A stretch of 30,642 nt of DNA, taken from assembly GCA_043822305.1 (NCBI GenBank), contig JBDRBU010000102.1, positions 1-30,642 on the forward strand, written 5' to 3'. Of this stretch, positions 13,740 through 30,642 are shown in pieces; position 1 is the stretch's first letter; each line of letters begins with the position of its first letter. The position numbers and the translations under genes were made by a program. The notes beneath the pieces are model-generated. The model was not told the DNA's origin and searched no databases. It saw nothing but the letters and a program-made list of their open reading frames with translations. The stretch is from Candidatus Firestoneibacteriota bacterium. GTDB lineage: Bacteria; Oederibacteriota; D2-FULL-39-29; JBDRBU01.

Positions 13740-13821
13740 GCCGGGATGGCGGAATTGGTAGACGCGTACGTTTGAGGGGCGTATGGGTTTTCCCGTGTGG
13801 GTTCAATTCCCACTCCCGGCA
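13740..13821 (+). tRNA. tRNA-Leu (anticodon GAG)
   Basis: Acceptor GCCGGGA/TCCCGGC; D-loop GGTAGA; anticodon arm TACGT-TTGAGGG-GCGTA; long variable arm; T-loop GGTTCAATTCC; CCA not encoded. Confidence 0.95.
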
Positions 13822-13854
13822 CTAAATTAGAAAAAAAACGAAAAAAACGAAAAA

Positions 13855-17645: not shown

Positions 17646-17653
17646 TATAATAT

Positions 17654-17723
17654 TATGACTTTCCATAATGTAAATAAATAATATTAGGAATAGTTGTTCG
17701 CCAAGAGGCGAACAGACTATGAG
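17654..17723 (+). repeat. Leader repeat copy 2 with a 28-bp AT-rich insert
   Basis: TATGACTTTCC[28 bp]GTTGTTCGCCAAGAGGCGAACAGACTATGAG before the GGAGG RBS. Confidence 0.7.
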
Positions 17724-18011: not shown

Positions 18012-18164
18012 TCGGAGTGTTAACCCCAATTAAAAAGACCGCTAAAGACATATCGGGTAAATAGTTGGCGAACCACAATAGATTAAAACATCATAAAAAC
18101 CTGAAGAATCATTATTCTTATATCAAATGAAAATTTGTTTTTTTTGATAAAGGAGGAAGAGAAA

Positions 18165-18476
18165 ATGGCTATTAACACGGTAAAAGTACCAAAGGAAATG
18201 GAACTGCTATTTATTAAAGCGCAGGAATATGTGAGTAAGTATTTTGCGAATAGAGTTGAGGACACTACAAAAGGAGAAATTTTTATTGGTGGTGAGAGAT
18301 ACATTTTAGTCAGGGCAGCTTCTATGTCCGTTGAATTTTTAGATTTTATTAAAAGTATCTATCCGGGGTTAGAGAAAAGTGAATCGGTGAAGGTATCTTC
18401 AAGTATTCTTTTTGATATTGCTCATGCTATTGGTAGGCTTGACCTGCCCCCAAATATTATACCACTTTTTAGTTGA
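18165..18476 (+). pseudogene. Truncated XylR-N/V4R-type sensory domain protein
   Basis: AGGAGG RBS; 'GEIFIGGERYILVRAASMSVEF' typical of V4R-containing sensor N-termini; family-like sequence stops at HAIG, where an IS-end-like sequence begins. Confidence 0.6.
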
Positions 18477-18480
18477 GACT
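18440..18480. mobile_element. Possible IS3-family terminal inverted repeat remnant
   Basis: TGACCTGCCCCC start resembles IS3-family ends and coincides with the gene truncation; no transposase follows. Confidence 0.45.
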
Positions 18481-18502
18481 TAAACATAAATTTACCTTGT
18501 CT

Positions 18503-18607
18503 GGTAATGGGTCAGTTATCGAGGGTAGTCGCAGGTTTTAACCTGCGTACAAATAACGCAACCTGAAGGTTGCGACTACCAAAAGCGACAATCACTGACC
18601 GATTACC
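18503..18607. repeat. GTAG REP doublet (REPIN, 18524-18580) nested in GGTAATGGGTCAGT...ACTGACCGATTACC arms
   Basis: GGTAGTCGCAGGTTTTAACCTGCG and CGCAACCTGAAGGTTGCGACTACC in inverted orientation. Confidence 0.8.
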
Positions 18608-18636
18608 TTGAAAATTCCTCTTGATAATATTATACT
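18608..18636 (+). promoter_or_regulatory. Putative native tRNA-Ser promoter
   Basis: TTGAAA-17-TATACT, 8 bp upstream of the tRNA 5' end. Confidence 0.65.
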
Positions 18637-18644
18637 TATATAGA

Positions 18645-18686
18645 GGAGGGTTAGCCCTAACTGGTAAGGCACCTGACTTGAAATCA
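18645..18686 (+). repeat. 5' half of tRNA-Ser(TGA), copy 1 (putative attL core)
   Basis: GGAGGGT-TA-GCC-CTAACTGGTAA-GGC-A-CCTGA-CTTGAAA-TCA; no variable arm, T arm or 3' acceptor strand follows. Confidence 0.88.
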
Positions 18687-18828
18687 GAAATTAAGCATAT
18701 GACGCTTCCCTTATTTTTAAAGAAAGATCAACAAACTAAAGAATTTTTCTAGAATTTGTTCATTCTCGCATTTGATTACATCTCATCAGATTTAACTGCA
18801 TTTTGGTCACGATTTGGGCAAATTTGAT

Positions 18829-18869
18829 AAGCACCTATCTTAAGAAGTTTTTAGGCTGGTGCTTTTTTT
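18829..18869 (+). terminator. Terminator-like hairpin AAGCACC...GGTGCTT + T-tract
   Basis: Related hairpin with the same TTAAGAAGTTTT loop at 29777-29810. Confidence 0.6.
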
Positions 18870-18907
18870 ATTTTGTAAAAAGATTTTTGGAGAATATGTG
18901 AAATTTC

Positions 18908-18936
18908 TTGTCAATTTACGATTGTTAATGTATACT
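18908..18936 (+). promoter_or_regulatory. Putative sigma70 promoter for island 1 cargo
   Basis: TTGTCA-17-TATACT. Confidence 0.65.
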
Positions 18937-19030
18937 ATACACAGAAACAGGAGGGAAATTATGCATTTCCCGGAAAGGAAAAAGATACTAAATAGGTTTG
19001 CTAAAATAAGAAAGGATTAGATAATAATAG

Positions 19031-19060
19031 AACCCACTTCTAAGGAGTGGGTTTTTGTTT
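19031..19060 (+). terminator. Intrinsic terminator upstream of the TPR gene
   Basis: AACCCACTTCTAAGGAGTGGGTT hairpin followed by TTTGTTT. Confidence 0.7.
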
Positions 19061-19081
19061 ATAGTAATAATAGGGAAGAAG

Positions 19082-20464
19082 ATGAAAAAAGTTAAATTAA
19101 TATTAATATCAGTTTTTATGCTTTTGATTGTATTTTCGTGTAAGAATTCACAACAGCATAGTGTTAATGACAATAAAGCAATAAAAAGTAAGAACGAAAA
19201 AATAAATAAAAATAAAGGAAATAATCTTTCAGAATATCAACATCAGTATGATTTAGGTTATAATTATTTAATAAAGAAGGAATATGATAAAGCTATATAT
19301 ACCTTGACTAAAGCAATAGGATTATACCCAACCAATATAGCTTATTATGATAGAGGCAATGCTTATTATTATAAAGGAGAAATTGATAAGGCAATAGATG
19401 ACTTTAATAAAAGTATAGAAATAGAAAAAAACTTTTATCCACCTTTTATAGGTCGTGGCAATGCTTATTTTTGTAAAGGACAATATGATAAGGCAATATC
19501 AGATTATACTTTCGTAACACATTGTATTGATGATGAAATGATTTATTTTGCACGGGGTATTGCATATAAAAGAATAGGAAAGAATGAAAAAGTGGGACAA
19601 GACATTAAAAAGGCTAAAGAGATAAGTATGGGTTTTTATAGTTCAATGGAAGGGGAAGTTTATGTTAAAAAGAATATACAAATAAAGGATCATATTGGGT
19701 TTTGTAGCCGTGGACATTATTATGCATATATAAAAGAATATGATAAAGCTATTGCCGATTTTAACAAAGCGATAGAACTACTCCCAAATTACACCTATTG
19801 TTATTTTCTTAGAGGTATAGCATATGAAGGAAAAGGGGAAAAAGAGAAGGCAGAAAAAGATTTTAAAAAAGTAGAAGAACTAAAGTTTAATAAACAAAAT
19901 AAACTTCCAAAGCCTGATGTTCAAAATAAATGTTCTTGTGAATGGCGAGAATTTGAGAAGATTCTAAAAGAAAAGATTAATCAAATTGGGCCAGAAATAT
20001 TTGAAGAAAAGATAGGTAATCGCTTAAGCAGTTATTTTACACCTTTTGAAATAAATTGTGTAAAAGAGTTTAAATCTAAAGTTGAGGAATTACTTTTAAA
20101 TTATTTACAAAAACAATCTGATAATGCATATGGTGCAATATATATTCTGGCTTATATTAAGTCGCGCCGTGCTTTACCATTACTTCGTCAGCAATTGTTG
20201 AAGGATCGATTTTTTTATGGTTGGGAGGGATATGACTATAAGGACGAAAAGGCGTATCTTTCTGATAATCAATATCCTCATCACTTAGCATATATTGCAG
20301 CTGTTGAAGAAATTACTGGACTTTCAATTGTAAAAGCTATAAATCTTTCACAAGAAGAACGAGAAAACCTAGAAAAAGATGCATTACTTGCAAAACCAGA
20401 TGTTTCAAGTACGAAATATTATTGTGCAAAGTGGTTATTACTAAAACTAACATCAAAGAAATAA
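19082..20464 (+). CDS. TPR-repeat lipoprotein with uncharacterised helical C-terminal domain
   Basis: Lipobox VFS-C; several TPRs ('AYYDRGNAYYYKGEIDKAIDDFNKSIEI', 'EYDKAIADFNKAIELLP'). Confidence 0.85.
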   Translation: MKKVKLILISVFMLLIVFSCKNSQQHSVNDNKAIKSKNEKINKNKGNNLSEYQHQYDLGYNYLIKKEYDKAIYTLTKAIGLYPTNIAYYDRGNAYYYKGEIDKAIDDFNKSIEIEKNFYPPFIGRGNAYFCKGQYDKAISDYTFVTHCIDDEMIYFARGIAYKRIGKNEKVGQDIKKAKEISMGFYSSMEGEVYVKKNIQIKDHIGFCSRGHYYAYIKEYDKAIADFNKAIELLPNYTYCYFLRGIAYEGKGEKEKAEKDFKKVEELKFNKQNKLPKPDVQNKCSCEWREFEKILKEKINQIGPEIFEEKIGNRLSSYFTPFEINCVKEFKSKVEELLLNYLQKQSDNAYGAIYILAYIKSRRALPLLRQQLLKDRFFYGWEGYDYKDEKAYLSDNQYPHHLAYIAAVEEITGLSIVKAINLSQEERENLEKDALLAKPDVSSTKYYCAKWLLLKLTSKK

Positions 20465-20529
20465 ACCTATTATTTTTGAGAAAAATACTTTATTCTAATT
20501 CTTTGAAGTGGTAAGGTAAGGGAAAGAAG

Positions 20530-21252
20530 ATGAGAAAACTGATATATTTTGTAATAGTAGTAGTTTTTGTGGTTGGAGTAATTCCAACTAATGCTTTTTC
20601 TGAAGTAATAGTAGAAAAACAATATTATTCTACATCTGAAATAAAAGTGAGAGCTCTGATATTCTATAGAGATGGAAAAGAAATTGCAAGAAAAGTATTT
20701 GATATAGATGGTAACATTAAAGAAGTTATAGGAAAAATTCCTGATGGTATAGCAATAGAATATCGTAAGAATGGAAAAATAAGAGAAGAAAGGAGTTATA
20801 AAAATGGAGAATTAAACGGATTGAGTAAACAATATGATATTAATGGAAATAAAACAATAGAAGGAATTTTCAAAGATGGGAAGTTAGAATTAACGAGAAA
20901 ATATGATACGGAAGGGAAACCAAGACTTGAAAGTAATTATAAAAACAATAGACTTAATGGTGCAACAAAAAAATATTACGATAACGGAAAGGTTATTGAG
21001 GAAATATACAAAGATGGTAAAAAAATAAAATATGAAGGAGATGCGAGTATGGATATATTAAATAAGATAGGTTTGGTTCTTAACATTATTGGTTCTCTTC
21101 TTATTGCTTTTTCTTTTGGAAAGCATCTTGGAGGAGCCTATAACTTGAATAGAAAAGGTAAAAAGATTTATATGGTATCTTTTAAATACCCCAAGATGTT
21201 TTGGGTGGGAGTAATTATCCTTGTAATAGGTTTTATTATACAAATAATATAA
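20530..21252 (+). CDS. Secreted MORN-variant repeat (YwqK-like) protein, apparently fused to a small 2-TM protein
   Basis: Signal peptide; 'YKNGELNGLSKQY..NG', 'YKNNRLNGATKKYYDNGK'; internal GAAGGAG + ATG at 21049. Confidence 0.75.
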   Translation: MRKLIYFVIVVVFVVGVIPTNAFSEVIVEKQYYSTSEIKVRALIFYRDGKEIARKVFDIDGNIKEVIGKIPDGIAIEYRKNGKIREERSYKNGELNGLSKQYDINGNKTIEGIFKDGKLELTRKYDTEGKPRLESNYKNNRLNGATKKYYDNGKVIEEIYKDGKKIKYEGDASMDILNKIGLVLNIIGSLLIAFSFGKHLGGAYNLNRKGKKIYMVSFKYPKMFWVGVIILVIGFIIQII

Positions 21253-21281
21253 TACATAAGCCATTTTATTTAGGAGGATTA

Positions 21282-22337
21282 ATGGATAGAATATTTTTAG
21301 CCATACCTTCAAAAGGATTTGGGTATAAATACCAGAAAGATATTTTAAAAAAACTTTGTGGTTTGGCTGGTTATGAACCATATACACTTGAGGATGATAA
21401 TAATCCACAAAAAAAGATAGAAAAGGTTTATATTGAAGAACAAATTAAGAATAGTCAATATTTTGTTGCAGATCTTTCAAGTGGCCGTCCTAATATTGCA
21501 TTAGAATTAGGTTGGGCTATGAAACTTGAAAATATAAAAGGGATATGTAAAATAATTTCTTCAATTGAACCGTTGTTTAATCAAATTTCTGACCTTCAAG
21601 GAGAAAATTTTCTAATCTATAAAAGTTTTGGAGATTTACAAAAACAATTTACTAAATGGCTGATCGATAATGTTAAACCAATTAAAGATGGGCTAAAACC
21701 ATATATTGAGGATGAAAATCTGAATGTTTTAGATTCGGGTTCTAATCCAACTTTTAAAGAAAATTTTTCAGATTATCAGAGTTTTTCTAAAGATTGGGTT
21801 ATTTCTCCTTCTACAGTATATGGACTTACATCTCAGGGTTTATTAATATCAGGTGGATTGCTTCCTGTTATGACAAGAGTTTTATTAGCTGAAAAATATA
21901 TTTTTAAGATGGATGTAAGAATTGTGAATAAATATGTTGGGATATGCTTTCATGGAAGCATTTCTTCAGTTGGAATCCCTAGTTCATTCTATATGCTTAA
22001 TCTGGATTTAAAACAAGAAAATAATAATTTAACAGTTGTTCCACATATATTTGTTAATGGAAATTATTATAAATTTAAAGAAAAAAATATACAGATTATA
22101 TTGGATGATGACAGTTTTATGAATTTATATATAGAAGCAAAAGGACCACTAATTACATTAAAAGATAGTAATAATTTAAATAAAAATATCACTTTTAATT
22201 TTATAGAATATGGGAATAGAATTTTGCCAACTTTTCAATCAGGAAATATAGGTTTTAGGTGTTCTGGTTATCAAGAAGATATTCAGGGATGTGAAAAGGC
22301 ATTAATAAGAAAAGTGGAATTATGGATTAAATCATAA
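21282..22337 (+). CDS. Nucleoside 2-deoxyribosyltransferase/TIR-like domain fused to a ConA/DUF1080-like beta-sandwich
   Basis: AGGAGG RBS before ATG 21282; 'IFLAIP...I..S.YFVADLS..RPNIALELGWA...SDLQG'; beta-rich C-terminus ending 'SGNIGFR...IRKVELW'. Confidence 0.65.
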   Translation: MDRIFLAIPSKGFGYKYQKDILKKLCGLAGYEPYTLEDDNNPQKKIEKVYIEEQIKNSQYFVADLSSGRPNIALELGWAMKLENIKGICKIISSIEPLFNQISDLQGENFLIYKSFGDLQKQFTKWLIDNVKPIKDGLKPYIEDENLNVLDSGSNPTFKENFSDYQSFSKDWVISPSTVYGLTSQGLLISGGLLPVMTRVLLAEKYIFKMDVRIVNKYVGICFHGSISSVGIPSSFYMLNLDLKQENNNLTVVPHIFVNGNYYKFKEKNIQIILDDDSFMNLYIEAKGPLITLKDSNNLNKNITFNFIEYGNRILPTFQSGNIGFRCSGYQEDIQGCEKALIRKVELWIKS

Positions 22338-22499
22338 AAGAATAAATTAAAGAAAATAATTTTTATATTGAGTTTATCTGTAATTGTTAGCTTAAATTTT
22401 AGTTGCCAATCTAATAATACTAACGTTTCTGCCAATTGTAATACAGATAGCGCAAATCAGAAGGAATACATAAAATATGGACTCCAAACACTAATATAA
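22338..22499 (+). pseudogene. Lipoprotein N-terminal remnant lacking a start codon
   Basis: Frame reads KNKLKKIIFILSLSVIVSLNFS-C-QSNN... and stops after 53 codons. Confidence 0.4.
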
Positions 22500-22708
22500 A
22501 TAATAAAATGAAGGCTAGTTGACATAATTCAGACTTATGAGAATAGTAAATAAAGTCTAAAGTGAGTAACCCCCCCACGAATCAATTAAAAATAGTGCAC
22601 CTGACTTTTCGTTAGATTTGATCCTTCATTTTATATTTTATCTCAATTGATTTTTATAAATGTATATAACACTTTTGAGATTTAGACTTTAATTTATTGC
22701 ATTTTTCA

Positions 22709-22737
22709 TTGAATATAAAAAATGATAGTGGTATAAT
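22709..22737 (+). promoter_or_regulatory. Island-borne promoter facing tRNA-Ser 5'-half copy 2
   Basis: TTGAAT-17-TATAAT with TG extension. Confidence 0.65.
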
Positions 22738-22858
22738 AAAAAATAATATTTTAAATATAATATAAATTTTTGGGCACGATTTGGGCAAATTTAAGGTGCA
22801 ACAAATTAGTCAAAAATTGAGGTGTAGAAAAGTATAGAAGATATAAAGAAATTTAGGA

Positions 22859-22900
22859 GGAGGGTTAGCCCTAACTGGTAAGGCACCTGACTTGAAATCA
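22859..22900 (+). repeat. 5' half of tRNA-Ser(TGA), copy 2
   Basis: Identical to 18645-18686. Confidence 0.88.
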
Positions 22901-23146
22901 AATTTAAACGATTTGCTGTTCCCTTTGTTTCCAACAAAATTCTTAATTTATAATAGTTTTTCAAAATAAAACATGTTTACATTTAGTTAGATTTAGTCAC
23001 TTTAAGTCACATTTATGACACAAAAATGTCACAAAAATTTTACTGGGTGTTTGGACGGTTTTATATAAAAACTTCAGAAAAGGTTTTAAATAAATTTTAA
23101 TAAAATTTTGATAGATTTTTTGTATAAAATAATGATATAATTATAA

Positions 23147-23772
<626 letters not shown>

Positions 23773-23820
23773 AGATATTACTGTAAGAATTAAAGTTATA
23801 TAAAGAAAACCATACAGTTT

Positions 23821-26252
23821 ATGAGTAACGAGGAGAAAAACAAAGTACTTTTAGAGAAAATAAAAGTTATCGAATCTCAAATTGATTTACTTACCGAAGA
23901 AAAAAGAAAGATAGTTTATGAGTTGAATAGTTAACTTCATGGAAATTCTAATATTACTCCTACAGGTATCTCAGAAGGCAAAATATTGTTTATGATGAGA
24001 AACATGATACTTCGAAATTTTCAATAACTGAGAGAATAAAATTGTTTAATAGTCTATTTAGAGGACGCAGTGATGTCTATGCACGTTTCTGGAAAAGTAA
24101 AAAGACAGGAAAGACTGGGTATAGCCCTGTTTGTAAAAATGAATGGATAAAAGAGGTTTGTAAAAAGCCTATAATAAAATGTTATGAATGTCCTAATAGA
24201 GAGTTTTCTTTACTAACAGAGGATGTGATACTTAAACATTTACAAGGTGAGCATATCGTTGGGATTTATCCTATGTTAGCAGATGAGAGTTGTTATTTTT
24301 TAGCTGTTGATTTTGATAAAGAAGGATGGATGGAAAATGTTTTTGCTTTTAAAGAGTTATGCTTGCATCATGGTATTCTAGTGTCTGTAGAACGTTCGCG
24401 ATCTGGGAATGGGGCACACGCTTGGATATTTTTTGAAGAGAATGTTTCAGCAATGATAGCGAGAAGAATGGGAAGTTTTTTAATTACAGAAACCATGTCA
24501 AGACGATATCAACTTGATATGAAAAGTTATGATAGATTATTTCCTAATCAAGATACCCTACCAAAGGGAGGTTTCGGAAATTTAATAGCGTTACCTTTTC
24601 AAAAGGAATCTATGAAACAAGGTAATAGTGTTTTTGTGGATGATAATAGTAATCCTCATGTTGACCAGTGGAAATATCTATTAAGTTTGAAGAAAATGAC
24701 ATTTTCCGAGATTGAGAAAATTTCAAAAGAAGTTTCTACAAGTAATCAAGTTGTTGGAATAAAAACAAGTCAAATCAGTGAAAATGAACTACCATGGATG
24801 AAATTGCCATCTGGAAAGAGGAGATATAAACCTGTAATAAATAATTTACCGGATAAAATTGAGGTTGTTATTGCTAATAAAATATATATTAAAGACGATG
24901 GATTACCTTCTGTGCTTTTAAATCTGGTTAAACAATTAGCTGCTTTTCAAAATCCAGAATTTTATAGAAGGCAAAGTATAAGGTTATCTACATCATTAAC
25001 TCCAAGGATAATATGCTGTTCTGAGATTTTAGATGGCTATCTTTCTATACCAAGGGGTTGTATAGACGGTCTCTATTGTTTAATGAATGAATATGGTATG
25101 AAGATTGTTATAAGAGATGAACGAATATCTGGTAAAAGAATCAATTTTAAATTTTATGGGTTGTTAAATAATGTGCAAAAAATCGCCGTTCAAAAAATAT
25201 TAAAAGATAATATAGGAATTTTAGTTGCTCCTCCTGGTGTAGGTAAGACAGTAATGGCTATTCACACTATAACTAAAAGAAAAACAAACACATTAGTTTT
25301 AGTACATCGTAAGCCACTCTTGGAACAATGGCGTAGACAGTTATCTTCATTTCTTAATATTGATTTAAAATGTATTGGTCAAATAGGTGGTGGGAAAAAT
25401 ACTCCAAATGGACTTTTAGATATTGCAATGTTACAAAGTATGGAAAGAAAGGGAATAGTAAATGACAGGATATCTGATTATGGTTTTATTATAATAGATG
25501 AGTGTCATCATATTGGTGCTGTTTCTTTTGAGAGGGTTTTAATGCAAGCAAAAGCAAAACATGTATTAGGACTTACCTCTACTCCATACCGGCGTGATGG
25601 ACATCACCCAATTATTTATATGCAATGCGGTCCAATACGTCACCATATAAAAGTAAAGGATGTTAATCAACAGATTTTTAAGTTTATCGTAATCCCCCCC
25701 AGAGCGACCAAATTCATTTATGAATGGTCAGAGAAATCTAATATTTGTAATATTTGGCCGGAATTAATAAATGACGAACAGAGAAATAAACTAATAGTAA
25801 GTGATATTGTAAAAGCTGTGCAAGAAGGAAGATTTCCAATTATTCTTACTGAGAGGAGAGAGCATCTTGATATATTGGCTCACGAGCTTCATCATGCAAT
25901 TGAACACTTGGTTGTTTTACATGGTGGTATAAAACCAAAAAGGCGTAAAGAAATGTTAAACAAATTATCTAAATGTTCTTATGATAAAAAGAAAGCTATT
26001 TTAGCTACAGGTGCTTATATTGGTGAAGGTTTTGATGCTCCAGCATTAGATGCACTTTTTATAACAATGCCTATTTCCTTTAAAGGAAGAATAGTGCAAT
26101 ATGCAGGTAGATTACATCGACAATACGAAGGCAAAAAAGATATTTGTATTTATGATTATGTAGATAAAGATGTATCGATTCTTGAAAGGATGTATCAGAA
26201 GAGATTAAAGACTTATAAGGCGATGGGTTATAAAATACAAGAGTTTGAATGA
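23821..26252 (+). pseudogene. TOTE-type archaeo-eukaryotic primase + SF2 helicase; 5' end disrupted, main ORF 24042-26252 open
   Basis: LFRGR.DVYA, GIYPML...CYFLAVDFD, ERSRSGNGAHAW, GNLIALP; Walker A APPGVGKT, DECH, QYAGRLHR; coiled-coil start at ATG 23821 hits TAA 23932 and is out of frame with the main ORF. Confidence 0.75.
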
Positions 26253-26288
26253 AAAAAAATTACTTTTTGTATGGATAAGGAATGATTT

Positions 26289-28007
26289 ATGGAGAAAATA
26301 GGATTGGGACCCTTTTTAAAAGAAGTTGAAGAATGTATTAATAATCTTTCAAAGGAAGAAATAAAATCTATGTTAATGGAGAAAGCAAGAAATACGAAGC
26401 CAGATGAAAGACATCTTTTCTTGTCGGAAATCAAATCAGCAATGTTAGATAGGTTAAAAAATAATTCTTCAGTATCACAGGATGGAATTAGTAATAGTGT
26501 TTTAGAGCATGATAAAAAACTTAATGAAAGTGAAAAAGATGTTTTACTAAATGATATTGATGATTTTGTAAAGGAAATAAACGAAGGGGAATATTCGCAA
26601 GGTTGGGGTTGGGATGATGAAATACATGATGAGAGAGAGTTTGGAGATGAAAGTTGGGTAGATGAGATGGATAACTTATTTGATAGGACAGATGATATAT
26701 TTCTATCTGGTGATATGGAAGGCGCTTGTTGTTCTTATGGAAAATTATTGAAAGCCTTTCACTTAGGAGAAGAGTCAGGTCATTTCTCAGGTCAATCATC
26801 ACCAGAAGAAATGGTATCTACAGATGTATCTGAGGCAAAAAATAGGTATTTAAGGGCATTATATGAAATTACTGATAAAAAAAATAGGGCAGAGACTATA
26901 TTTAAAGAGATTGAGGATCTTGCATATATAGGTGCTCATGATTTTAATTTAAATGTAATTGAAGAAGCACTTCCTGCTAAACCGGAGAACTGGGATATAT
27001 TTTTAATGGATATGAAGAAAATTTTACTAAGAGAAGTTATTAAAGATGTAGGGACTAGATGGGGGTATGGTGAAAACAATTTTAATATGGTATGTTATAT
27101 TATTGAAAAACTTGAAGGGATAAAAGGGTTAGAAAAATTTGCAGAAGAATATGGTGAAAAGGTTTACAAAGCATATCTTGTATTGGTAACTAAGTTGTAT
27201 GAATTACAAATGTACAGAGAATCTCTTGAATCTTATCAAAAAGGACTTAAAGTAATTCCAACTCAAAATTTCATTCGGGCACAGATATCTGATTTAGCAG
27301 CAAAATCCGCAGAAAGTATTAAGGATAAAGAGACTGCCTTTAATGCATATAAAGAGGCATTCTTTTCACATCCAAGTTTGAAAAGGCTTCTTGCTTTAAG
27401 AAAAAGCAGTAATGAATTATGCAAGGCTAACATAATGGAAGATGTTGTTGATTTTTTGGAAAAACATCAATGGAAGGGAAGTTTTATTGATAATTCCAAG
27501 ACATTATTAATACAATCTTATATTCTTACAGAAAAATATGATAAGATGTGGGAAGTTACTAAAAAGGAGGAACCTTTGGGATGGTCTTTTGGTGATAATT
27601 CACAGGCAATAGCTGTTCCATTTTTACTAATGTCTTGTGTAAGGAAAATGTCGTTAAAGAGCAATTCTGCTATTAAAAAAGTTTGGGATTGGAATAGGTT
27701 TGATGATGATAAAAGTGACTTCAAGAATATTGTTGAAAGAGAAATTCTATCTAAGGATATTTCATTAGAAGAAAGAATAAAACAAGTAGAATGGGTAAAG
27801 ATAACTATTGAGAAACGGATTGATGCTATAGTGTCTAATAAACATCGTGGAAGTTATGACAAAGCGGCATTACTTCTATTTGGATGCACAGAGACTTTAA
27901 ATATGCTTGATAAATCTGATGAGGCTCAATCTTTTTTTAATAAAATAAAGTTACGATATAATCATTACAGTGCTTTTCAAAGAGAGATAAAGTCTTTACA
28001 AATATGA
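26289..28007 (+). CDS. Large acidic alpha-helical hypothetical protein
   Basis: 572-aa ORF; C-terminus 'IV.NKHR.SY.KAA..L...RY....AFQ.E' resembles the helical tails of SWIM-associated proteins. Confidence 0.75.
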   Translation: MEKIGLGPFLKEVEECINNLSKEEIKSMLMEKARNTKPDERHLFLSEIKSAMLDRLKNNSSVSQDGISNSVLEHDKKLNESEKDVLLNDIDDFVKEINEGEYSQGWGWDDEIHDEREFGDESWVDEMDNLFDRTDDIFLSGDMEGACCSYGKLLKAFHLGEESGHFSGQSSPEEMVSTDVSEAKNRYLRALYEITDKKNRAETIFKEIEDLAYIGAHDFNLNVIEEALPAKPENWDIFLMDMKKILLREVIKDVGTRWGYGENNFNMVCYIIEKLEGIKGLEKFAEEYGEKVYKAYLVLVTKLYELQMYRESLESYQKGLKVIPTQNFIRAQISDLAAKSAESIKDKETAFNAYKEAFFSHPSLKRLLALRKSSNELCKANIMEDVVDFLEKHQWKGSFIDNSKTLLIQSYILTEKYDKMWEVTKKEEPLGWSFGDNSQAIAVPFLLMSCVRKMSLKSNSAIKKVWDWNRFDDDKSDFKNIVEREILSKDISLEERIKQVEWVKITIEKRIDAIVSNKHRGSYDKAALLLFGCTETLNMLDKSDEAQSFFNKIKLRYNHYSAFQREIKSLQI

Positions 28008-28423
28008 TGAATTTTGTTTTGTAAAAATCTTTATACCTTGCACATTATTATTTACTATAATCAAGAACGGTAAAGCATTTTCAATTGTTTCCCATGTCAC
28101 TTGATATGACAGTCGGTTTTTTAAATTTATTAAAGCAGAACGTCCTTGTCTGCTTTCCATATAAATCCCGGTTAACTTTTTAAAAATGTATGTTTCTATA
28201 AATTCTATAGCAACGGTTTTTAAATCCTTATTTTGTTTTGCCTCTTTAAGATAATCCTTGGTTATAGAAACCTTTTTAGTCTCATCTTATCAATTATTGT
28301 AATAATGTCTGGCAAACTCTTTCCAACCAACCAGATACAAATCAATACTATAGTAAATACACTAACATAAGAAGTTGTTTTTAGAATATTTACAATATCT
28401 GAAATGAACTTAAAAAAATCCAT
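27996..28423 (-). pseudogene. Frameshifted membrane-anchored hypothetical protein
   Basis: AAAGGAG RBS + ATG 28423; TM segment; one extra A in the A5 run near 28275 would join it to an open frame (KKVSITKDYLKEAK...) ending at 27996. Confidence 0.55.
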
Positions 28424-28502
28424 GATTATTGTCTCCTTTCCCAATAAGTATATAACATTTTATGGAAATCTTCGATTTCTCTTTTTATCCACGATTAAAA
28501 AT

Positions 28503-28685
28503 TTAGATTTTGGCCGTAACCCCTGTGTTATCTGCAGTCGAATGTCGATGACTTTTGAAATCCCGCAATAATTCATCCGATTTTCTCTTTATATACTGTA
28601 TCTGTATTTCGAGTGATAAGTCTTTTGTCTCCTTGTATTGTTTATCCCGTATCTTCCTAACCATCTCAATTGCTTTTACTGACAT
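28503..28685 (-). CDS. Small putative antitoxin downstream of the PIN toxin
   Basis: 'KAIEMVRKIRD' motif; overlaps the 3' end of the PIN gene. Confidence 0.65.
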   Translation of the reverse strand: MSVKAIEMVRKIRDKQYKETKDLSLEIQIQYIKRKSDELLRDFKSHRHSTADNTGVTAKI

Positions 28686-29139
28686 AGGTTGTTACCTCCC
28701 TTGGAGAATAGATTGATATTATCTTATACCCTTTCTCAAGATTCACAGCATTAAACTGCTGAATTTTATTAAAATTCACGACATGCTGAAAATTCCAACT
28801 TACCAATATGTCTATATTTGCTACAGATGCTAGAGCAATATGCATAGCATCATTTTTATAGTTTTGTGTCAGGATACTATGAGTAAGATAAGATTCGGCA
28901 AGATCTATAACTTCTGTGTTTAAATCAAGAAATTCATGTTCACAATCTCGAAATTCTCCATATATCTTTTTAACCTCATCAGGAGCATCTTTAATCTCTG
29001 CATCCGTAAGAGAAGAAAGAACTAAAGAAAATATACCCATTCTGAAATCTGAAAGAAGTCCTTCAGACCATTCTTTAAATTCAAGGTCACAACAACCACC
29101 AATTACTGAAGTATCAACATAAATTCTAGTTCTTTTCAT
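28666..29139 (-). CDS. PIN-domain (VapC-like) toxin
   Basis: IYVDTSVIGG, S.L...E, DAMHIALA, LVSWNF.H, I.SP.EV. Confidence 0.9.
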   Translation of the reverse strand: MKRTRIYVDTSVIGGCCDLEFKEWSEGLLSDFRMGIFSLVLSSLTDAEIKDAPDEVKKIYGEFRDCEHEFLDLNTEVIDLAESYLTHSILTQNYKNDAMHIALASVANIDILVSWNFQHVVNFNKIQQFNAVNLEKGYKIISIYSPREVTTYVSKSN

Positions 29140-29199
29140 AGTATTTCTTTTTTAACTGGAATCCGTCATATCAAAACCAACTAACCTATTTCTATTATA

Positions 29200-29227
29200 A
29201 TTATACCATAAAAGATGTTTAAGTCAA
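29200..29227 (-). promoter_or_regulatory. Promoter of the PIN TA operon
   Basis: Minus strand TTGACT-16-TATAAT with TG extension. Confidence 0.65.
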
Positions 29228-29308
29228 GAAAAATATTTTGAAATACAGCGAATTTTAAAAAATGATAGCATTTTAAAAATTATTATGCTATAACGATAAA
29301 ATAAGGTT

Positions 29309-29350
29309 GGAGGGTTAGCCCTAACTGGTAAGGCACCTGACTTGAAATCA
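29309..29350 (+). repeat. 5' half of tRNA-Ser(TGA), copy 3
   Basis: Identical to copies 1 and 2. Confidence 0.88.
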
Positions 29351-29541
29351 ATTAAGATGGATTAACCGCTTCTCTTATTTCTACAGTTAAATCCTTGTAT
29401 CACAATGATAAACCTCAGATTGAACCATTTTCAGAGTTAATCAGATTTGGTCTCTTTTTGCCTGTTTTATTACACAGTTTTAGCACAGTTTTGGACTTGA
29501 AATTTTTAAACAAGAAATATGTTGAGAAGTTTTTATAGTAG

Positions 29542-29618
29542 CGGTTTTTAACTTAAATGGATAGAGCAGAGGTTTCCTAAACCTCGCGCTGGAGGTTCAA
29601 TTCCGCTCGGGCCCACCA
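29542..29618 (+). pseudogene. Degenerate tRNA-Arg(CCT)
   Basis: TGGATAGAGC, anticodon arm GAGGT-TTCCTAA-ACCTC, GGTTCAATTCC, CGGGCCC-A-CCA; the 5' acceptor strand (CGGTTTT) does not pair. Confidence 0.75.
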
Positions 29619-29776
29619 AAAAAAAGATTGTATATTCTGAAAAATCCTTTGAAATTCAAAAGAATGTTAATTTTGCGATTTTTCTCACCGGAAAAACATT
29701 TCACACCATTTCACACTTTTTCACCCTTTTTGACATAAATGTAGTCCCAATTTGGTCCCACTTTTTCCGGAACAAG

Positions 29777-29810
29777 AAGCACCACCTTAAGAAGTTTTAT
29801 AGGTGCTTTT
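29777..29810 (+). terminator. Terminator-like hairpin homologous to 18829-18869
   Basis: AAGCACC...TTAAGAAGTTTT...GGTGCTTTT. Confidence 0.55.
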
Positions 29811-29925
29811 GAGTTTTTAGGTTAAATTGTTTAGGTTATATCACAGAAACTGTAGAATTACTTCAAGGATTCATAGCAGCAATTTAAAGGAAAATAATTC
29901 ACTACAACAAAAACAAAATATTTCC

Positions 29926-29953
29926 TTGACAAAACGAACTTTTGAGGTATAAT
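29926..29953 (+). promoter_or_regulatory. Consensus sigma70 promoter
   Basis: TTGACA-16-TATAAT. Confidence 0.7.
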
Positions 29954-29998
29954 AAGATAGAAGCTTGCTCAAGTTTAATGCAGAGAAATGATGTAAGT

Positions 29999-30640
29999 CT
30001 AAATATATGAGAGAGTTTTTTGATTTTGACTCGTTTTAGGCCATTTTGGAGATAAGTAATGAGAAATTTGAAAGAGTTTGAGATGATCGAGCCTGCCTTT
30101 CTCAGTACGAAAGCCAAAACGAACTTTTTCCCATTGTCTATAAATGTTAATAAGAGTTTCAGAATTACCGGATCTTGGGACACGAAAATCTTTAAGAAAA
30201 GTAATCATATATTCGAAGTTAGAGGACATAAGAGTTTTGATGATAGATTTAAAGTGGATAGATTTTTCATGCCATTTTTCAAGATAGAGTTGATTTCTTT
30301 TGTCATAAGCATTTTGAGGGGTTTTAGAGTTAATAAAAATATCTCTAGTTTTATCTTTAAAAGAAATAATATCTGGGATAATAGAATTTTTATGATGATT
30401 AAGAAGTTCATCAAGGTTATATCTATCCATGATGGAATAATTTTTAGGATTTTTAAGGATAGTGAATTGGGATTTTCTAATTTCCCAATAAAGATCCATC
30501 GAATTATTTTCAGAAAGTTGATTATAGTAATCAATAATGGTCTTATTAAGGTGACGATTAACATCTTGCATAATATGGAAATAGTCAAATTGAATTTTGA
30601 TACCTTTTCCATAGACATCAATGATAGCAGGTGGAAAGGA
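29999..30640 (-). mobile_element. Transposase C-terminal part (ISL3/IS256-like DDE), 5' end beyond the window
   Basis: Frame open to the window edge: 'FPPAIIDVYG...IQFDYFHIMQ' (DxFH motif) and 'VPRSGNSE......RQWEK.RFGFRT'. Confidence 0.65.
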
Positions 30641-30642
30641 AG

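Follow-up and report, generated by a model that had tools for sequence, protein, structure and literature searches.

How does the front half of one tRNA gene come to stand three times, always in the same orientation, in a stretch of DNA in which no back half follows any of the copies? The question is raised by a 30,642-nucleotide contig of Candidatus Firestoneibacteriota bacterium (GenBank assembly GCA_043822305.1, contig JBDRBU010000102.1), the whole of which is the window analyzed here, and which we refer to as C102 among the 125 contigs of a 2.15-Mb draft genome. A first-pass annotation took the DNA between the repeats for small cassettes that accrete at one tRNA-Ser site through an integrase acting in trans or encoded downstream, in the manner of an integron. 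Our analysis supports its reading of the repeats as tRNA-derived attachment (att) sites, and the answer that we favor, with a probability of about 0.8, is that they are junctions from successive site-specific integrations into a single tRNA-Ser(UGA) gene.

The repeated 42-mer (GGAGGG...AAATCA) occurs in three exact copies, all on the plus strand (18645-18686, 22859-22900 and 29309-29350), and no fourth match was found in the window when up to three mismatches were allowed; the chance expectation is low, with 0 matches in 100 dinucleotide shuffles. The 42 bp correspond to positions 1-42 of an intact tRNA-Ser(TGA) gene on another contig of the assembly, C9, with copy 1 identical to that gene through position 43, and the block of identity takes in the acceptor 5' strand, the D arm, the 5' strand of the anticodon stem, the loop and 3-4 nt of the 3' strand. 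The triplication reported in the first-pass annotation is thus confirmed, as is its statement that the 3' half never follows, since the sole tRNA that ARAGORN finds in the window is a tRNA-Leu(GAG) at 13740-13822, in agreement with Rfam at its gathering thresholds. If the copies are read as att junctions, they and the units bounded by them (unit 1, 4.2 kb and 3 genes; unit 2, 6.45 kb and 5 genes; unit 3, from copy 3 onward) would be arranged as follows:

18645..18687, plus strand: copy 1, tRNA-Ser(UGA) positions 1-43, candidate outermost attL-type junction
22859..22900, plus strand: copy 2, tRNA-Ser positions 1-42, candidate hybrid junction of units 1 and 2
29309..29350, plus strand: copy 3, tRNA-Ser positions 1-42, candidate hybrid junction of units 2 and 3

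A complete tRNA-Ser(TGA) gene beyond the window and a tyrosine integrase close to it had also been predicted, and both are present on C9. Among the 42 tRNA genes and one tmRNA gene that ARAGORN identifies in the assembly, the only intact tRNA-Ser(TGA) is an 89-nt gene at C9 c[18111-18199], and directly upstream of it, on the same strand, lies a tyrosine integrase gene of 362 amino acids (aa; PF00589, 6.4e-43) whose stop codon is 42 nt before the first base of the tRNA. Residues R196, K221, H284, R287, H310 and Y319 of this integrase are invariant in 26 sequences (the protein aligned with 25 homologues), and we take them to be the conserved catalytic Arg-Lys-His-Arg-His-Tyr set. The catalytic domain fits that of a heterobivalent (lambda-type) tyrosine integrase, and Arm-DNA-bind_2 matches with E = 0.0018 and 18.7 bits, under the cut-off of 22. 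A six-frame PF00589 search of the whole genome found four genes over the cut-off, namely two of Xer size on C119 and C108, the C9 integrase, and a 207-aa open frame on C94 about 250 bp from the contig end, and had no match on C102. Pfam detected no recombinase among the 8 main and 20 further small open reading frames (ORFs) of at least 50 aa in 18645-30183, so that the earlier claim of a recombinase-free interval between the copies also holds.

We propose that the elements would belong to one family of tyrosine-integrase islands whose attP carries the 5' part of the tRNA gene (positions 1-42), with strand exchange in the anticodon loop. Each integration would displace the old 5' half together with everything upstream of it, and because the gene would be rebuilt each time from the 5' half brought in by the element, the intact tRNA-Ser would stay at the downstream end, beside the newest integrase, as the 5' halves stack upstream. 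Units 1 and 2 would then most probably be deletion derivatives or non-autonomous relatives of integrase-bearing elements.

The placement of related integrases at other tRNA genes bears directly on this mechanism. Homologues of the C9 integrase numbered 5250 at E <= 1e-20 among the candidates scored, and where the source gives a name it is Omnitrophota or Firestonebacteria. In species-representative genomes, the 3' end of the integrase has a tRNA or tmRNA gene no more than 250 bp away at 59 of 80 loci; the two genes share a strand in 23 of these cases and lie on opposite strands in 36, and the other 21 loci have no such gene there. The 79 metagenome loci, which represent closer relatives and were retrieved with peptides of the C9 integrase itself, divide into 58 with the tRNA on the same strand, 2 on the opposite strand and 19 with none, several of these 19 being on contigs that have no room left for one. 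Displaced 5' fragments were found upstream at loci L044 (positions 1-40), L116 (1-43), L164 (1-39) and L186 (1-39), the far end of an element being visible only where the flank is long enough; L116, whose integrase is one of the three nearest homologues (61 % identity), is a 6.9-kb element beside a tRNA-Ser(CGA). The opposite-strand loci L042, L096 and L124 have displaced 3' fragments that start at positions 31-32. The anticodon loop is the one part of the gene that the 5' and 3' blocks of identity have in common, so that strand exchange can be placed there (an 'A' site in Islander terms), which supports the crossover position suggested for the array by the first-pass annotation.

In a tree of 77 integrases (four of the 80 loci were dropped for internal stops), orientation relative to the tRNA changes 11 times, compared with a shuffle mean of 18.3, and at least three changes are forced by well-supported branches. 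Orientation as the trait of a clade with a single origin was considered and rejected, since it is clustered on the tree but flips often. At L186 (1890-14201), a single tRNA-Arg(CCG) gene has displaced fragments in both directions, one of its 5' end at a distance of 9 kb upstream and one of its 3' end at 3 kb downstream, which means that both sides of the gene have been used. At L125 (4954-5197), the tRNA-Arg(TCT) gene is followed by its own T-arm end in three copies of 20-22 bp, about 100-120 bp apart.

Most tRNA-gene fragments in the same genome are cut in a similar way. When all of its tRNAs were compared by blast with the assembly, seven fragments of at least 20 bp were found outside annotated tRNAs, and 6 of the 7 are 5' halves that end at positions 38-43, i.e. 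0-4 nt past the anticodon loop: the three Ser copies on C102, positions 2-43 of tRNA-Arg(CCT) on C72, and two halves of tRNA-Thr(CGT), one on C71 (positions 1-38) and one decayed copy on C19 (94 %, positions 4-39). The seventh is a 58-bp piece of tRNA-Arg(CCT) within the window (29555-29612, positions 15-72, 98 %), and one extra 5'-half-like piece was seen on C94. Between the tRNA-Thr(CGT) 5' half and the intact tRNA-Thr, C71 holds a 3.9-kb island (C71:5307-9354) with an 817-aa ORF, a 178-aa ORF and no integrase, so that islands bounded by 5' halves and lacking an integrase are not unique to the Ser locus. Outside this genome, the relative G004, which belongs to another family of the same order, carries positions 1-42 of the 5' half of its own tRNA-Ser(TGA) with one mismatch (C20:1129-1170, locus L114), its intact tRNA-Ser(TGA) being near the end of another contig. 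None of the 13 genomes of the organism's class in the collection searched contains the 42-mer at three or fewer mismatches.

Sequences that resemble integrase arm regions flank the copies in the window:

18688..19055, plus strand: putative left (P') arm of unit 1, with the motif TTTTGGTCACGATTTGGGCAAA at 18800-18828 and a terminator-like hairpin at 19029-19055
22768..22858, plus strand: putative right (P) arm of unit 1, resembling the last codons of the C9 integrase and the spacer before the intact tRNA
22901..23110, plus strand: putative left (P') arm of unit 2, with helical-phase direct repeats ATGACACAAA / ATGTCACAAA at an 11-bp offset, about +115 from the core
29351..29541, plus strand: putative left (P') arm of unit 3, with a 9/10 repeat at +122 that was reached in 1/300 shuffles

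Unit 1 resembles the C9 element on both sides. The region of TTTTGGTCACGATTTGGGCAAA is, over 29 bp, 96.6 % identical to the arm before the intact tRNA on C9, with 21 nt exact. On the right, blastn aligns 22768-22900 with C9rc 1369-1504 at 78 %, core included; the 94 nt before copy 2 and the 94 nt before the intact tRNA agree in 68/100 alignment columns (shuffle mean 0.53, maximum 0.60), and the two arms have in common an exact stretch of 25 nt, TTTTGGGCACGATTTGGGCAAATTT. On C9 the motif falls within the final codons of the integrase, which are poorly conserved, and the matching sequence before copy 2 could therefore be an arm site, an integrase relic or both; it is not proof that unit 1 once had its own integrase. 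The 21-25-nt arm motif in common with the C9 element makes the use of an integrase in trans plausible for unit 1 only, and we infer that the resident C9 integrase might still be able to move it.

The arms of units 2 and 3 are without the C9 motif, the longest common stretches being 8-11 nt. In the left arm of unit 2 the repeat ATGACACAAA / ATGTCACAAA has 9/10 matches, which was equalled in 2/300 shuffles, and a direct repeat of at least 9/10 nt with a 10-11-bp offset, located between +72 and +122 from the core, is present in 5/7 left arms (0-4/300 shuffles). Such direct repeats are putative arm-type binding sites that might differ between element lineages. Among the left-arm pairs, 4/28 are strongly similar (z >= 8.5, 0/200 shuffles), some of them across tRNA targets: the two Arg-type arms, in the window and on C72 (z = 29.6); the unit 3 arm (Ser3) and the arm of the tRNA-Thr island on C71 (z = 14, 0/200 shuffles); Ser1 and the C72 Arg arm (z = 10.1); and Ser1 and the Arg-type arm of the window (z = 8.5). 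Most other left-arm pairs, Ser1/Ser2 included, are at chance level.

With their different arm sequences, the three units look like three separate elements of one family rather than cassettes of one platform. The picture of small cassettes accreting at one site would, in its strongest form, make the locus a dedicated cassette-capture platform, a tRNA-based analogue of the integron, whose units 1 and 2 never had integrases and are moved in trans by the resident integrase. One genome does contain three integrase-less units with perfect cores (units 1 and 2 and the tRNA-Thr island on C71), both arms of unit 1 carry the arm motif of the C9 element, and all three Ser copies are perfect as compared with the Thr scar on C19, which has decayed to 94 %. 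We nevertheless consider such a platform unlikely, given that the resident element's motif is missing from the arms of units 2 and 3, that the C71 island uses a different tRNA, which would be unexpected for a tRNA-Ser-specific integrase, and that relatives in which both ends are visible (L044, L116, L164 and L186) carry an integrase of their own. The C9 integrase scored 86.9 bits against the NCBIfam subfamily model for integron integrases (IntI), for which the cut-off is 265, and 55.7 against the equivalog model, for which it is 435. Furthermore, the excisionase-type gene beside the resident integrase is truncated: upstream of the integrase lies a 44-codon HTH_17 remnant (C9:19398-19661, locus L001 2747-3004) that covers profile positions 15-49 of 51 and adjoins the last 41 codons of an ISL3-family transposase, which reaches the end of the contig. 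The end of this ISL3-family element recurs at six other contig ends, and the excision gene of the integrase-bearing element looks as if it had been cut short by an insertion sequence (IS). A wider version of the same idea would place units 1 and 2 and the C71 island in a class of miniature integrase-less islands, each reduced to its core, its arm sites and a handful of cargo genes and shuffled in trans by a resident integrase of the 5' type. If it were true, the front half of a tRNA gene would serve an uncultured lineage as a cassette dock for defense genes; we regard it as a long shot.

Several observations weigh against the successive integration of related elements at one gene. The array and the intact tRNA are not joined in the assembly, as C102 and C9 both end in IS elements: C102 stops inside an ISL3-type element with its transposase on the minus strand, and C9, when read towards the tRNA, starts with the end of another, different ISL3-type element that lies on the plus strand. 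Because these elements differ, no single IS copy bridges the two contigs, and at least two IS copies and possibly more DNA would lie between them. None of the 9 proteins encoded upstream on C102 occurs within 8 kb of a tRNA-Ser in relatives of the same order, so that gene order on the upstream side is not shared and speaks neither for nor against the link between the contigs. The arm motif of the C9 element is missing from the left arm of unit 3, where the longest stretch in common with that element is 11 nt, and there may be further units in the gap before it. Among the three Ser left arms the resemblance hardly exceeds that of shuffled sequences (56-59 % global identity, where shuffles average 53 % and reach 58 %; local z-scores -0.3, 2.7 and 3.4), so that membership in one family rests on the network of arm similarities and not on every pair. 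The direct-repeat test was not significant for Ser1, for C94 or for any of four right arms. Units 1 and 2 hold no integrase pseudogene beyond the only match obtained by tblastn of the C9 integrase against the genome, 13 residues at 22769-22807 (E = 6.6), and because these 13 codons overlap the arm motif they do not prove the loss of an integrase. Lastly, a promoter-like site was looked for upstream of the intact tRNA-Ser and none was found. We infer that C102 may continue into C9 and that units 1 and 2 may have lost an integrase rather than never having had one.

On the other side of the intact gene, the order tRNA-Ser(tga), 361-aa gene, tRNA-Ser(gct) found on C9 is kept in relatives. About 3.4 kb of extra genes lie between the C9 tRNA-Ser(tga) and the 361-aa gene (C9:14788-17950), including a MazG-like gene, an HNH endonuclease gene (PADLOC HNH 1.4e-22) and a 650-aa ORF, where the same-order relatives G005 and G009 have merely 60-90 bp; this insertion is not marked by any 3' tRNA fragment.

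Another question is whether the array itself might be an artefact, i.e. a chimera of separate loci or strains that were joined at the 42-bp tRNA stretch. The genome is a 125-contig draft, and the one public sequencing run with this DNA (0.06 of the sampled words) covers the region in short contigs from related organisms, leaving most of it uncovered and showing no joint that links one 42-bp copy to another; a metagenome scan with a 30-mer of the tRNA half returned 0 matches. One contig of that run, which comes from another public sample, is 504 nt long; it matches the left end of unit 2 (22859-23078) at 96 % (9 differences) and diverges exactly at 22859, which would be in keeping with a false join, and this single contig also fits an element boundary at the repeat. 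Sequencing reads, and the k-mers common in assembly, are longer than the 42 bp of the repeat, which would speak against a false join. The three copies have the same orientation, arm-like sequence is found on the expected sides of each, and the right arm of unit 1 resembles the arm beside the intact tRNA. Tandem arrays of this kind are, moreover, documented elsewhere, in the parts of PMC4383910 and PMC3146451 that describe tandem islands. Taken together, these points make an assembly artefact very improbable.

Successive integration would also account for the sequence just before copy 1:

18608..18636, plus strand: promoter-like site TTGAAA-17-TATACT, 10/12 matches, 8 nt upstream of copy 1

This site is probably the displaced native promoter of tRNA-Ser(UGA). 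It is weak evidence, because the region is AT-rich and such sites are not enriched in it (68 found, compared with a shuffle mean of 63.9). The same site, at the right distance before copy 1, might be cited in favor of quite another explanation, in which the 5' halves are kept for a function as RNA, either as regulatory RNAs that resemble tRNA halves or as leaders of downstream operons; every copy does stand upstream of plus-strand genes, and the three are perfectly conserved. The repeats as riboswitch or leader RNAs were tried and rejected, as no Rfam family was matched even at E values up to 1. The block of identity, moreover, ends where the att fragments of relatives end, copy 1 and the first gene after it have a terminator-like hairpin between them, and the cargo of the three units is unrelated. 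Retention for an RNA function therefore strikes us as extremely unlikely.

Beyond the promoter-like site, the DNA upstream of copy 1 contains short repeats, at 18439-18608 and at 17652-17720, the latter recurring at 5 other places. Positions 18504-18608 are 100 % identical to C117:25804-25908 and form GC-rich hairpins with GTAG/CTAC ends, and the ORF at 18135-18476 appears to stop where the short repeats start. DNA matches to this upstream flank among the genomes of the class were to short repeats only.

The cargo of the units on which successive integration would have acted, and what follows in unit 3, can be listed as follows:

19055..22337, plus strand: cargo of unit 1, made up of the next three genes
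19055-20464, plus strand: TPR protein
20530-21252, plus strand: MORN-repeat protein
21201-22337, plus strand: 378-aa protein of no Pfam family, with TIR-like leads
23156..23772, plus strand: DUF433 / DUF5615 gene pair of unit 2 (PF04255 2.5e-25, PF18480 1.7e-20)
24042..26252, plus strand: primase-polymerase (AEP-TOTE) fused to a superfamily-2 helicase, 736 aa (PF22548 8.5e-96; ResIII, DEAD, Helicase_C)
26289..28007, plus strand: 572-aa protein of unit 2, no significant family
28666..29139, minus strand: weakly PIN-like 157-aa protein at the right end of unit 2 (PF01850 E = 0.0028, below the family cut-off)
29542..29830, plus strand: pseudo-tRNA-Arg(CCT) with a tRNA-Arg-type arm, in unit 3 (tRNA model 23.8 bits, cut-off 29)
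29958..30642, minus strand: diverged ISL3-family IS that runs off the contig end (transposase fragment 29999-30640, PF01610 2.7e-8)

The 378-aa protein occupies the position in which an integrase would be expected and was considered as one, and was rejected because hhalign gave it a probability of 0.2 % against the integrase alignment. Over residues 28-165 it has TIR-like or nucleoside-deoxyribosyltransferase-like leads in Atlas and PADLOC (the Atlas entry begins at residue 28, and the TIR-like lead in PADLOC has E = 0.0083). The DUF433 / DUF5615 pair is presumably toxin-antitoxin-like. For the 736-aa protein, which PADLOC matches as PrimPol at 5.5e-90, the domain composition is compatible with either a defense gene or a replication module of unit 2, and as a full-text literature search returned no paper on a TOTE system, the label is that of the Pfam name and of nothing else. 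GC content does not set the islands (0.25-0.32) apart from the core (0.28-0.36).

In unit 3, the pseudo-tRNA-Arg(CCT) at 29555-29612 is 98 % identical to positions 15-72 of the real gene (C21:288-363). By comparison with C72:1327-1368 it contains about 45 additional nt, by which the 3' half of the tRNA is completed, and the locus has the look of an att relic left by an Arg-targeting sister element and nested in the Ser-targeting unit 3. The ISL3 end that follows, about 140 bp of it, recurs at 9 contig ends with 88-92 % identity.

Read in this manner, the locus offers a clean, well-bounded case of the minority '5'-fragment' type of tRNA-gene integration in a poorly known, AT-rich and uncultured lineage, and points to a whole clade of integrases that uses the upstream side of tRNA genes. 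The genome's single tRNA-Ser(UGA) gene would now depend for its expression on upstream sequence supplied by an element. In such genomes, islands will be under-counted by programs that are geared to 3' fragments or that accept an island only when it contains an integrase, and the islands described here mark candidate defense genes, namely the TOTE-type primase-helicase, the TIR-like protein and toxin-antitoxin-like pairs.

How, then, does the array compare with systems already described? Like an integron, it is an ordered array in which copies of one recombination site divide the units from each other, and a single recombinase gene would lie at one end. Unlike an integron, it has no attC hairpin sites, its site lies inside an essential tRNA gene, and its multi-gene units (3 and 5 genes) carry several hundred bp of arm sequence, and are not single-gene promoterless cassettes. 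With tRNA halves in place of attC, units that have their own arms, and the integron-integrase scores given above, the term 'integron-like' used in the first-pass annotation is not supported.

A second parallel is provided by the cis-mobilizable elements and the accretion described in Streptococcus thermophilus, terms that are said to have been coined there by Pavlovic et al. (2004) and Bellanger et al. (2011); mobilization of these elements has reportedly been shown experimentally. In Dehalococcoides, the ssrA islands form tandem arrays bounded by 20-bp repeats, and PMC3146451 raises the possibility that those members of the arrays which have no integration module are 'cis-mobilizable elements' that move by accretion. 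As in both of these organisms, att-bounded islands without recombination genes would stand here in tandem beside a related element that encodes a recombinase; for such islands an origin by deletion and tandem accretion has been suggested, as has co-mobilization with the neighbor. The differences are that the S. thermophilus and Dehalococcoides islands use the 3' end of fda or ssrA, whereas a tRNA 5' half is used here, and that the Dehalococcoides recombinase, as described there, is a serine recombinase, in place of which a tyrosine integrase is found here. Units 1 and 2 have perfect cores on either side and no recombinase was found in them, and unit 1 has arm stretches in common with the C9 element, so that, as far as their gene content and arms can be interpreted, they are best described as islands similar to cis-mobilizable elements, with probable defense and surface-protein cargo.

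A third comparison is with the islands of Islander (Hudson, Lau and Williams 2015; PMC4383910), where Table 1 counts 3919 islands, 159 of them with a 5' fragment and 2083 with anticodon-centered sites, and also has 125 in tandems of at least two members and 4 in tandems of at least three; by its rules every tandem member must have an integrase. The first-pass annotation called 5'-half duplication the rarer class, which agrees with these overall counts (159/3919) and is reversed in the integrase's own clade, where 58/79 loci have the 5' orientation. Like the islands of that catalogue, the present array has an integrase beside the intact tRNA, a displaced cognate fragment in the same orientation and an anticodon-loop site; the intact tRNA and a displaced fragment of the same gene are both present, and their orientation agrees only if C102(+) leads into C9(-). 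An integrase inside each island is not found, as units 1 and 2 are without one and only the element beside the intact tRNA has one, and since the rule as published demands an integrase for each tandem member, these two units would be filtered out. Unlike the Islander collection as tabulated, 6/7 of the fragments in this genome are 5' halves, and the nearest integrase clade is almost wholly of the 5' type. The array reveals no new mechanism. It adds one more case to a known kind of structure, in which tRNA-gene islands of the 5'-fragment type stand in tandem and some of them lack an integrase.

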